Source: an uncultured cyanobacterium
GTDB lineage: Bacteria > Cyanobacteriota > Cyanobacteriia > Cyanobacteriales > CAWUOF01
Direction of reading: 5' to 3'
Assembly: GCA_963744145.1 (NCBI GenBank)
Contig: CAVUSO010000001.1
Location: forward strand, 2,240,001-2,304,000
Length of the DNA stretch: 64,000 bases
Numbering within the stretch: position 1 is the stretch's first letter; each line of letters starts with the position of its first letter. This document shows, piece after piece, positions 42,690-44,670 of this stretch. A program made the position numbers and the translations under genes. The notes beneath the pieces were generated by a model. It was not told the DNA's origin and searched no databases. It saw only the letters and a program-made list of their open reading frames with translations.

Positions 42690-43624
42690 TGGTTGGTTCT
42701 ACTCTGTGGGTCGGTCAGGATCGCCCAGACAATTCGACCCACCTGGTTAGAGCTTTGCCAAAATGCGATCGCCAAACTGTTTCCACTGAGATTTATTTTT
42801 TTAATTAGCATTGGTAGTAATTTAATTGTTGGCATAATGCAAATTAATTCTGGTTGATTGTTGTCAAAATCTAACTGTTAAAATTGGCAGTTTTTGCTAT
42901 CCTTTATTTACAGGTATTTATTTTTAATCTCCTTTCCAGTAATAATTTAAACACATTTAATATTTCTAGTAAGTAGAAATTGGCTCGACTGGGTGATCAC
43001 TCCAGATTTTTCAGTCTCCCCAAGTCAGATTAACCGATTTATTTAGATATCGATCTTACCACCAGAGATGAGGGATAAAGACATTTTTCCCCAGTTTGAC
43101 CCAAATCTTTCTGGGCTATAAGGTGGGCAACTGCGCGAGAATTTTGATGCAGTTGGTTAGATCCCATCATCTTTTTGCCCTAGTCAGACTTGTGCCTGAG
43201 ATAATTTTCCCTCACTGATAGCTATTTGACCCCTAGCAGGCTTGCTGAAAAATCCTCCCCAGACTAAAGGCATAATAATCTCTTTTACTGTGTTAGTCGT
43301 AAACTTGTCTGGATCAACCCAATGATCATTTAATTTATCGGGGGTATGCCTCCTTAAATCTCAAAATATAGCCTATGTTCAAACTTAATGTAATTAGGCG
43401 ATGATAGAAAAATTTCAACAAAAATCTTTATTCCCAAGTAGTTGAGCCATTTTTCACTGGATAATAGCCAATGACGATCCGAAATGTGCATCTGACTAAC
43501 TATTCCTACCCCTCCTTTCGTCCCATGATGCTGGGGAAAAGGGGGGCGGTTGCTACCAGTCAACCTTTAGCGAGTTTAGCTGGGATGGAAATGCTGCACC
43601 AGGGAGGAAATGCAGTCGATGCGG

Positions 43625-43880
43625 CTATCCGCTAAACACGCTTTCAGATCTGGACAACCAGTACATAAAGTGTAGAGATGGCCAGTCTCAGTAGGGGCGT
43701 ATTGCAATACGCCCCTGCTACGTTACTTGGGTCATGGCACCCTTCGACTCCGCTCAGGGTAAACCTGCGAGTGCTTTCCAGCTTGTAGCTCTGCCGTTCA
43801 ACTTTAAACATCCCTATAAAGCTCAAGGAAGTGAGTTGAGCCGAACAAGCCTAAGTAACATTGACGAGGAAACAATTACC
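43625..43880 (+). ncRNA. HEARO / IscB omegaRNA-like structured RNA (interrupted by a REP and a 24-nt element)
   Basis: ctacgtta..ggtcatggcacc..gtgc..ccagc..gctctg..tttaaaca..ggaagtg..acaagcct..taacattgacgaggaaacaattacc matches the recalled HEARO consensus order. Confidence 0.7.
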
Positions 43881-44093
43881 ATTCGACTACGCTCACGGTC
43901 AGCCTGAGCAATCAGAGTTTTAAACGCCCCAAGCGAGGCGGGTCTGAAAAGAACAATATCGTAGCTTCTATCTGTAATGCCAGCAGATATGCCAGAGAGA
44001 ATCACCACTTTTGAGGCGCAAAGGTGTTCTTTTTTTTTGATTAAGATCGCAAGAGTCCACATTTGTCCACATATTCGGCGATTAGAGGTGATC
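43625..44093 (+). mobile_element. ORF-less insertion element carrying a HEARO/IscB omegaRNA-like scaffold
   Basis: Precise removal restores the ggt frame (D-A-A-I-A-M) and a HIP1 site, with no target duplication. Confidence 0.8.
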
Positions 44094-44383
44094 CGATCGC
44101 GATGGCAATTACCCTAACAGTAGTAGAGCCTACCTGCAATGGGATTGGCTCCGATGCTTTTGCTTTATTTTGGGATAGTCAATTACATGGGCTCAATGCT
44201 GCGGGCAAAAGTCCGCAAAATTTGACAAAAAACTATGGTTCTGATCTGAAAGAATTACCCATCTATGGGTGGACAACAGTAACCGTACCTGGAGCAGTTT
44301 CTGCTTGGCGATCGCTGTGGCAAAAATGGGCTGCATCTGAATCCCGTGCTGATGGAATTGCTTTAGCTTGGTAGGTTGAACAT

Positions 44384-44439: not shown

Positions 44440-44670
44440 TTACGAGTTTTGTAAAGTGCTGCTAGCGTAAGCATCCATCCCATAAGCAGGCACCCGCTCG
44501 TTATAATCCATTTTGCTACCAGTAATAGACTCAGATAGTCGTTCAAAAGATGCAGAGCGCCAATTGCGTTCGTGGATAGGTTTAGTTTGTTCACCCCGGA
44601 AATAAGCTTGAGTACCCAGTAATGCTGCTGCTACCCAACCAATGATAAATAAGGCGATTAGAAGTGTCAT
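44440..44670 (-). CDS. psb35: Photosystem II assembly protein Psb35 (Ssl2148-like)
   Basis: IGWVAA..LGTQAYFRGEQTKPIHERNWRS..FE.L..SITG. Confidence 0.75.
   Translation of the reverse strand: MTLLIALFIIGWVAAALLGTQAYFRGEQTKPIHERNWRSASFERLSESITGSKMDYNERVPAYGMDAYASSTLQNS

Follow-up and report, generated by a model that had tools for sequence, protein, structure and literature searches.

A protein-free HEARO element, probably of the IscB transposon family, inserted into a HIP1 octamer of a cyanobacterial ggt gene

HEARO RNA reportedly goes back to Weinberg et al. 2009, and many of its cyanobacterial copies come without an open reading frame (ORF). One such copy is the subject of this report: a 469-bp insert at positions 43625-44093 (or, with a shift by 1 nt, 43626-44094) of the window, that is, of a stretch of 64,000 nucleotides from an uncultured cyanobacterium (assembly GCA_963744145.1, contig CAVUSO010000001.1, positions 2,240,001 to 2,304,000), to which all positions given without a prefix refer. 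The insert lies within a HIP1 octamer (GCGATCGC) of the gene ggt, in the same direction as the gene, and a first-pass annotation, made from the letters alone, had described it as a protein-free element carrying an IscB omegaRNA. Protein-free guide-RNA derivatives of IS200/IS605 elements, the insertion of ISC elements inside short targets and HEARO itself are already known. The element described here is a real, non-autonomous OMEGA element (short for obligate mobile element-guided activity); its relatives very likely share HIP1 as their target, and the protein-free copies carry a 3' RNA domain of their own.

ISC transposons insert inside specific short targets without duplicating them (Kapitonov, Makarova and Koonin 2016, PMC4810608). 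As far as that description was available, the present family resembles them in several respects: its members that carry iscB are some 1.55 kb long and have the RNA end on the 5' side of iscB; terminal duplications are missing, and insertion takes place in the middle of a target whose 5' bases are the first bases of the RNA stem; most members have no transposase gene of their own. The targets in the available part of Table 1 of the same paper are GT^GG, GT^GA, GT^GT, GT^AA, TT^GG, TT^GA, AA^GG?, N^ATGA and CC^CG (insertion points are marked by a caret throughout), and G^CGATCG is not among them; unlike those targets, the one used here is a palindrome of 8 bases with 7 or more of them specified. 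Also unlike the ISC elements of that description, our copy has no iscB and its far end shows no clear subterminal hairpin.

PATE-like elements (Meers et al. 2023, 10.1101/2023.03.14.532601) offer a second parallel, being likewise short and provided with both ends and a guide-RNA gene, encoding no protein, and being dependent, as our element would be, on a nuclease and a transposase encoded elsewhere. Those described are related to Geobacillus ISGst1 and ISGst5 and possess hairpin ends as well as target-adjacent motifs (TAMs) such as TTCAT; a dedicated conserved 3' RNA domain and HIP1 are not mentioned in the available part of their description. Compared with the Rfam model HEARO (RF02033), our element gives a full-length match, while the domain of 125-145 nt that follows in the protein-free copies lies outside the model. 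Neither an IscB clade targeting the HIP1 core nor a dedicated 3' domain marking stand-alone omegaRNA elements was found in the literature searched, which did not extend to Weinberg 2009 and Altae-Tran 2021; these may hold integration-site data and may touch on ORF-less or trans-acting RNAs.

The HEARO scaffold occupies positions 43624-43879 on the + strand and corresponds to model positions 1-211 of RF02033, with a score of 86.8 bits against a gathering score of 83 and an E-value of 3.8e-16. The HEARO-like scaffold proposed in the first-pass annotation is thereby recognized in the unedited sequence; no other Rfam model matches the region 43400-44300 at E<=1. Model position 1 is the host base G43624, and the scaffold thus abuts the transposon end, with the guide position in the flank. 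Over aligned columns it is 88-91% identical to the scaffolds of three elements of the same genome that carry an intact IscB. Along the element, the scaffold is followed by a structured 3' RNA domain with a terminator-like end, and this by the far terminus of the family. That the insert holds no credible ORF, as previously stated, was found to be correct: its four ORFs of 46-79 amino acids have no Pfam match at E<=0.01, and a tblastn search with IscB detected nothing at E<=10 in any of the short copies described below, where iscB does not directly follow the scaffold.

The left junction (43624^43625) reads GATGCGG^CTATCCGCTAAAC, the element starting with CTATCC, and the right junction (44093^44094) reads GGTGATC^CGATCGCGATGG. 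Deletion of the 469 bp in silico produces GAT GCG GCG ATC GCG ATG, which restores the frame of ggt and rebuilds GCGATCGC with zero duplicated bases; the cut point is ambiguous by 1 nt (G^C or GC^G) because positions 43625 and 44094 are both C. Twelve ggt loci were fetched, one of them (L016) from the genome of the window itself; L026 and L027 were left out and the other nine (L017-L025) were compared. All nine orthologues are colinear through the insertion point, with GAT GCN GCN (D-A-A) followed by I/V/L-A/G, and G43624, the first base of an alanine codon, is therefore a host base outside the element. The precise in-frame rejoining, the rebuilt octamer and the missing target duplication, all read in the first pass, were thus reproduced. 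The nearest ggt match among 40 relatives is 77% identical, so that the empty-site test for the 469-bp copy is limited to codon-level colinearity.

The 5' fragment of ggt (43471-43624, + strand) is an ORF colinear with the orthologues, and ends with G43624, the base that opens the split HIP1; the host half of the octamer, CGATCGC, lies at 44094-44100 and represents the target site and presumed TAM. The second fragment (44094-44374, + strand) matches positions 15-98 of 512 of PF01019 and ends in a short piece matching the extreme 3' end of the orthologues. Since 44330-44373 aligns to that extreme end, about 1.2 kb of the interior of the gene is gone, the deletion lying near 44311-44330. The remnant (43471-44374) is the sole G_glu_transpept match in the 7.7-Mb genome. 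As a gene, ggt is dead, with the insertion and this deletion as its two lesions.

Of the 15 HEARO matches in the genome, 13 exceed the cut-off. The family starting with G-CTATCCGCTAAAC accounts for eleven, to which one partial copy is to be added; 10 copies have both ends, five of them short (403-469 bp) and five long. Three long copies (H04, H06 and H09; 1,551-1,564 bp) each encode an intact IscB of 424 amino acids, which has RRXRR and HNH domains and matches solved IscB structures; in the other two (H07 and H08) iscB is broken by other insertions. A cognate RRXRR/IscB gene, which the first-pass annotation had proposed to look for, is therefore present in three intact copies. The short copies (ours, H14, H11, H12 and H10) share one common build and are found at unrelated loci with different flanks. 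They follow the long form until about 3 bases before the start of iscB, where about 125 nt of other sequence replaces the ORF, and rejoin it about 40 nt before the far terminus. H14 is the sister of our copy, with 95.8% identity over 477 nt. The short form has moved as such, being found at five unrelated loci, one of which has a paralogous empty site. Together with the conservation of the 3' RNA domain, these findings strengthen the earlier description of the element as non-autonomous.

The far terminus of the family consists of 16 nt, GCGATTAGAGGTGATC (44078-44093, + strand), located opposite to the RNA, at what is in transposase terms the left end, and common to the 10 family copies, to one IS607-like remnant and to one solo end. 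Just inside it, two GTCCAC repeats about 10 nt apart (44055-44070, + strand) represent the inverted form of CTGGACA, which lies at 43650-43656, close to the other end; they are conserved in the clade of HIP1-flanked elements. The sequence following the terminus was tabulated. Among the 10 own copies it is CGATCGC in 5, CGATCGT or CGATCGA in 2, and CGATCA, TGATCGC and TGAACAG in 1 each; a CGATCG-type far flank is found in 9 out of 10 own copies and in all 17 tabulated foreign copies. In 7.70 Mb, HIP1 is found 7,852 times, where composition would lead one to expect about 41, and CGATCG 14,860 times, 71% of which are preceded by G; the probability of CGATCG at one fixed offset is about 0.002, and against this background the flank motif is far beyond chance. 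The overlap of the target motif with HIP1, raised as a possibility in the first pass, is thus found again in the collected copies.

When 27 far flanks are pooled, position +1 is C in 23 and T in 4, +2 is G in 27, +3 is A in 27, +4 is T in 26, +5 is C in 27, +6 is G in 25 and +7 is C in 18. The T variants at +1 could be later C-to-T changes. The base preceding the RNA end is G in all 28 near flanks, positions further out being variable, and the rebuilt site is the full octamer GCGATCGC in 15 out of 26 cases. The invariance of this G exceeds what the abundance of HIP1 alone would produce, although not all of the copies are independent.

A search for IscB in public genomes yielded 80 loci. The same type of end followed by [C/T]GATCG was seen in 15 of them (14 distinct sites), all starting with G-CTAT; in 14 foreign loci the start of the flank had first been placed via the motif itself, a count that was circular until it was repeated with an independent anchor. 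The anchor was ATTAGA or ATTAAA, present 20-40 nt after iscB in 20 of the 80 loci, and [C/T]GATCG follows it exactly 7 nt later in 14 of these 20; the remaining 6 ends of the ATTAGA type have other flanks. Five loci of another IscB clade (L087, L090, L095, L096 and L097) have an ATTAGA-type far end next to other flanks, such as ...TG^GC; one type of end therefore occurs with different targets.

A quick maximum likelihood tree of 80 IscBs was obtained by using IQ-TREE, with the rows L086 (partial), L089 and L099 (stop codon in the match) dropped. The 18 HIP1-flanked IscBs fall on one side of a branch with an SH-aLRT value of 99, and come, by the titles of their records, from Microcoleaceae, Aerosakkonemataceae, Coleofasciculaceae, Scytonemataceae, Rhizonemataceae and Oscillatoriaceae. 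As read from its flanks, the whole IscB clade to which the element belongs lands in [G]^CGATCG. For one of the 10 own copies, H14 (L014), a candidate empty site is available in the same genome. It reads ...TTTTTACTG^CGATCGCCAGTG (ACTG^CGATCGCC), is identical to the flanks of H14 for 31 nt on each side, and belongs to a paralogous repeat of about 163 nt (C1:3189344-3189506), 3.6 kb from H14. From this site, the target is G^CGATCG(C), with the G derived from the target. A tRNA-His gene adjoins H14.

The sequence that replaces iscB in the short copies proved to be a conserved RNA domain, termed here R1, about 125-145 nt in length, which begins past the end of the HEARO model (43879). In BLAST searches with the region from about 43904 to 44093, 19 out of 401 genomes of the order, the own genome included, gave a match, with 76-85% identity in other genera. 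At eight such foreign loci the region comes directly after a HEARO match, the element as a whole measuring about 0.4 kb; GCTATCC starts and CGATCG flanks are found in three, GTCAAC or GTAAAC starts and hairpin-type ends finishing with GATGA in the other five.

A covariance model of R1 was built from 13 sequences. It matches our copy at 43903-44028 (+ strand) with 135.5 bits, and the match is closed by a terminator-like hairpin with a T-run (44006-44036, + strand), the latter not being kept in all foreign copies. In the own genome, R1 is found in all five short copies and nowhere else; among 151 genomes of the order it matches 10, with up to 11 copies in one genome. A HEARO match (E<=0.001) lies directly upstream in 15 of the 20 foreign R1 loci scanned, and the five loci without it are the weakest R1 matches. 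R1 is found only in protein-free HEARO elements: the 80 IscB loci (517 kb) contain no match at E<=0.01, and no IscB lies within 1.5 kb of any of 30 R1 loci. With filters off, scores of 9-10 bits are obtained beside the IscB-linked scaffolds of the own genome, which reflect one shared hairpin.

In 35 aligned R1 matches, 94.7% of the cells pair and 16 out of 26 pairs show changes on both sides, on an alignment that was fitted to the model and leans towards structure. None of 500 shuffles reached these values, and slid controls were 35-52% paired; compensatory changes are already visible in two R1 helices in an unfitted MAFFT alignment. The G-U pairs are compatible with the + strand only, and the structure is therefore in the omegaRNA sense, not on the strand that would carry the transposase target. 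When the 214 nt after HEARO were folded alone, a z-score of 0.12 was obtained, the structure emerging only from the comparative alignment. According to Meers et al. (10.1101/2023.03.14.532601), RF02033 is without downstream elements, and they added a 'second stem loop', which is probably the first hairpin of the R1 region; for the other 110 nt or so of the domain, the literature searched gave no description, as far as it was available. R1 marks the stand-alone omegaRNA genes as an evolving lineage, and not as random deletion products.

Three small repeats are nested in our copy. A palindromic mini-repeat (43691-43716) replaces the tip of a scaffold hairpin, falling within the hairpin loop of the model, and has 47 exact matches in the genome, or 260 with up to 2 mismatches, on both strands. 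A dispersed 24-nt repeat (43739-43762, + strand) lies between model positions 88 and 89, in a junction of the scaffold, and is absent from 7 out of 10 aligned copies; the segment 43740-43764 has 131 genome matches with up to 2 mismatches. The first-pass annotation had marked 43691-43716 and 43740-43763 for removal before a model search, and had missed a third, 24-nt repeat (about 43881-43904, + strand), the core of which is related to the second, with only 5 matches at up to 2 mismatches. This third repeat is present in our copy, H14, H12 and H07, and absent from H10, H11 and the copies with an intact IscB. The hairpin-tip repeat is also found once in H09, an element with an intact IscB. Natural copies without nested inserts score 100-135 bits with HEARO (H11 100.8, H10 101.1), and the low margin of our copy is due to the three repeats nested in it; H11 and H10, as natural repeat-free copies, stand in for the edited sequence that had been suggested for the covariance-model search. 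In H10 the palindromic mini-repeat is seen twice in tandem at the hairpin tip, and the first 15 nt or so have diverged.

The anatomy of the element and the targeting of HIP1 can be held with high confidence. It is also probable, with somewhat less assurance, that 43625-44093 is a non-autonomous, protein-free member of the IscB (ISC/OMEGA) transposon family whose RNA would home by means of an IscB supplied in trans. The steps of such homing derive from the OMEGA model as presented by Meers et al. (10.1101/2023.03.14.532601). Read-through transcription from the co-directional ggt would produce an RNA starting with the last 16-20 nt of the 5' ggt fragment (about 43605-43624, + strand), which would act as the putative guide. 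One of the three 424-amino-acid IscBs encoded elsewhere in the genome could bind this RNA in trans, and the complex would cut the element-free allele upon a guide match followed by CGATCG as the TAM; repair from the occupied chromosome copy would then restore the element. Movement to new sites would need a transposase supplied in trans. Elsewhere in the genome, no CGATCG is preceded by a match to the putative guide of our copy, taken as 16 or 20 nt.

Several observations weigh against this reading. Our copy is just 3.8 bits over the HEARO cut-off, and one of the nested repeats sits in a junction of the scaffold. At C1:3189419, CGATCGCC is preceded by a perfect match to the guide of H14, taken as 16 nt, and this site is intact. 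Three delimited multi-copy families with a Y1 transposase have neither matching ends nor CGATCG flanks, and the far end of our element has no significant subterminal hairpin on either strand (z-scores 0.65 and 0.28), unlike textbook IS200/IS605 ends. To these must be added the initial circularity in placing the foreign flanks and the fitted alignment used for R1, both described above.

The intact target of H14 implies that the RNA of H14 is not directing efficient cleavage and homing now, or that the site is protected; the RNA or IscB may be inactive, or cleavage may be repaired without conversion. H14 carries the same three nested inserts as our copy. According to published abstracts, GATC and CGATCG, as parts of HIP1, are recognition sites of orphan methylases, and protection of the target of H14 by methylation may be put forward as a pure hypothesis. 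Activity of our copy at the present day is doubtful. It is quite possible, if short of being the favoured account, that a real former transposon is represented here by an inert relic, whose RNA is not made or no longer guides IscB: the copy scores 86.8 bits against 100-135 bits for relatives without nested repeats, it carries all three of these repeats, its host gene is already dead from a second lesion, and the perfect target of its sister survives uncut. The version with all three repeats, however, still transposed, since H14 shares them and has a young paralogous empty site, with flanks 96-97% identical; the same hairpin-tip repeat is tolerated in an element that keeps an intact IscB, and both scaffold and R1 are conserved, with covariation, across genera.

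The IS200/IS605 label given in the first-pass annotation could not be secured. The genome has 17 Y1_Tnp matches; ends were read for the families T1, T2 and T3 only, the single-copy T8, T10 and T13 being not delimitable, and none of the three has matching ends. The sole other transposon sharing the terminus is a degenerate IS607-like element (L118, C1:2347560-2350600) with a truncated Resolvase-domain ORF and a frameshifted TnpB, which starts with the 16-nt terminus of the family next to CGATCGC; this element is single-copy and has a further small repeat inserted close to its end. IS607 elements, according to a review, have no inverted terminal repeats and make no duplication, in which they resemble the present family. 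A proposed alternative mover of the family is a serine recombinase of the IS607 type, working on double-stranded ends, in place of the Y1 transposase (TnpA) of IS200/IS605. The shared terminus, the missing Y1 element with matching ends in the three families examined, the far end without a significant hairpin and the TGGAC/GTCCA doublets, present at both element ends in inverted orientation, would fit this proposal; small hairpins at the RNA end have a z-score of -1.32.

Unlike IS607 elements, however, no family copy has a serine recombinase gene within or beside it, and the junction dinucleotides of the own copies, GC at one end and CC at the other, share no 2-nt crossover core. ISC elements are grouped with Y1 transposases by Kapitonov et al. 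(PMC4810608), and iscB is reported by Meers et al. (10.1101/2023.03.14.532601) not to occur with serine resolvases. Moreover, the IS607-like element is single-copy and broken, and the three families with ends read stand for only a part of the 17 Y1 matches. Mobilization by a serine recombinase is, on balance, rather unlikely.

A further proposal gives the HEARO-R1 RNA of the protein-free elements a role other than guide homing: it might sequester IscB, as a decoy or regulator, or be a stabilised RNA with its own function. R1 is absent from 80 out of 80 IscB-linked loci and from the IscB-linked copies of the own genome, is strongly conserved across elements with two kinds of ends, and the surviving target of H14 would fit an RNA that does not license cutting. 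Yet the full scaffold is kept, beside the flank as a guide requires, a 3' domain with a terminator is the simplest substitute for the downstream mRNA, and direct evidence for any other function is missing, which makes such a role distinctly unlikely. Finally, nearly every copy has the motif next to the conserved terminus, but the idea that CGATCGC is part of the element, with no targeting of HIP1, can practically be dismissed: ggt needs the codons ATC GCG and is continuous in 9 out of 9 orthologues, the empty site of H14 has the whole octamer without the element, and the motif stays constant between genomes in which the bases immediately inward of the terminus differ.

With a non-autonomous element of the IscB family retained as the probable reading of the locus, a broader and rather speculative view, which we would not expect to hold in full, is that filamentous cyanobacteria harbour an old lineage of protein-free OMEGA RNA elements, composed of the HEARO scaffold and a dedicated structured 3' domain and parasitic on IscB transposons, with the HIP1 core serving one IscB clade both as landing site and as TAM. 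If true, this would bring HIP1, the core of which occurs about once per kb, together with its two orphan methylases, into direct contact with a system of transposon and RNA-guided nuclease, and methylation of CGATCG or GATC could decide on cutting or invasion, which would explain the surviving self-target. The long-unexplained HIP1 would thereby gain a testable partner. Its function is still debated after three decades, according to published abstracts, and an IscB clade that lands in this most abundant cyanobacterial repeat, presumably reading it as a TAM, would give the debate a concrete molecular partner; as a palindromic and methylated motif, HIP1 offers a natural setting in which to ask whether an RNA-guided nuclease is gated by methylation. 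A stand-alone omegaRNA lineage is also relevant to the question of how, en route to CRISPR, guide RNAs and nucleases came to be separable modules. For genome editing, an IscB of 424 amino acids, combined with a trans-acting RNA and a presumed palindromic TAM of 6 bases, would merit characterisation as a compact and well-defined tool.

A few minor observations concern the ends of other elements and the surroundings of ggt. At L119 (3048-3072), the 16-nt terminus stands alone, with CGATCGCG behind it; a tRNA-Trp gene lies about 100 nt upstream, and transposon genes are missing from the vicinity. Five near-identical IS605-type elements of 1.9 kb, encoding a Y1 TnpA and a TnpB, are present in C1 (for example at 205874-206218); their TnpA-side end, ...GAGTTTCCCACTTACCGAG...TATGA, resembles the far ends of IscB elements of other cyanobacteria that are not flanked by HIP1 (for example L051, L057, L063 and L069). 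In the window, an ORF of 76 amino acids on the - strand (44440-44670), hydrophobic by eye and with no Pfam match, is followed by a strong terminator-like hairpin (44410-44391, - strand) that directly adjoins the end of the ggt remnant.

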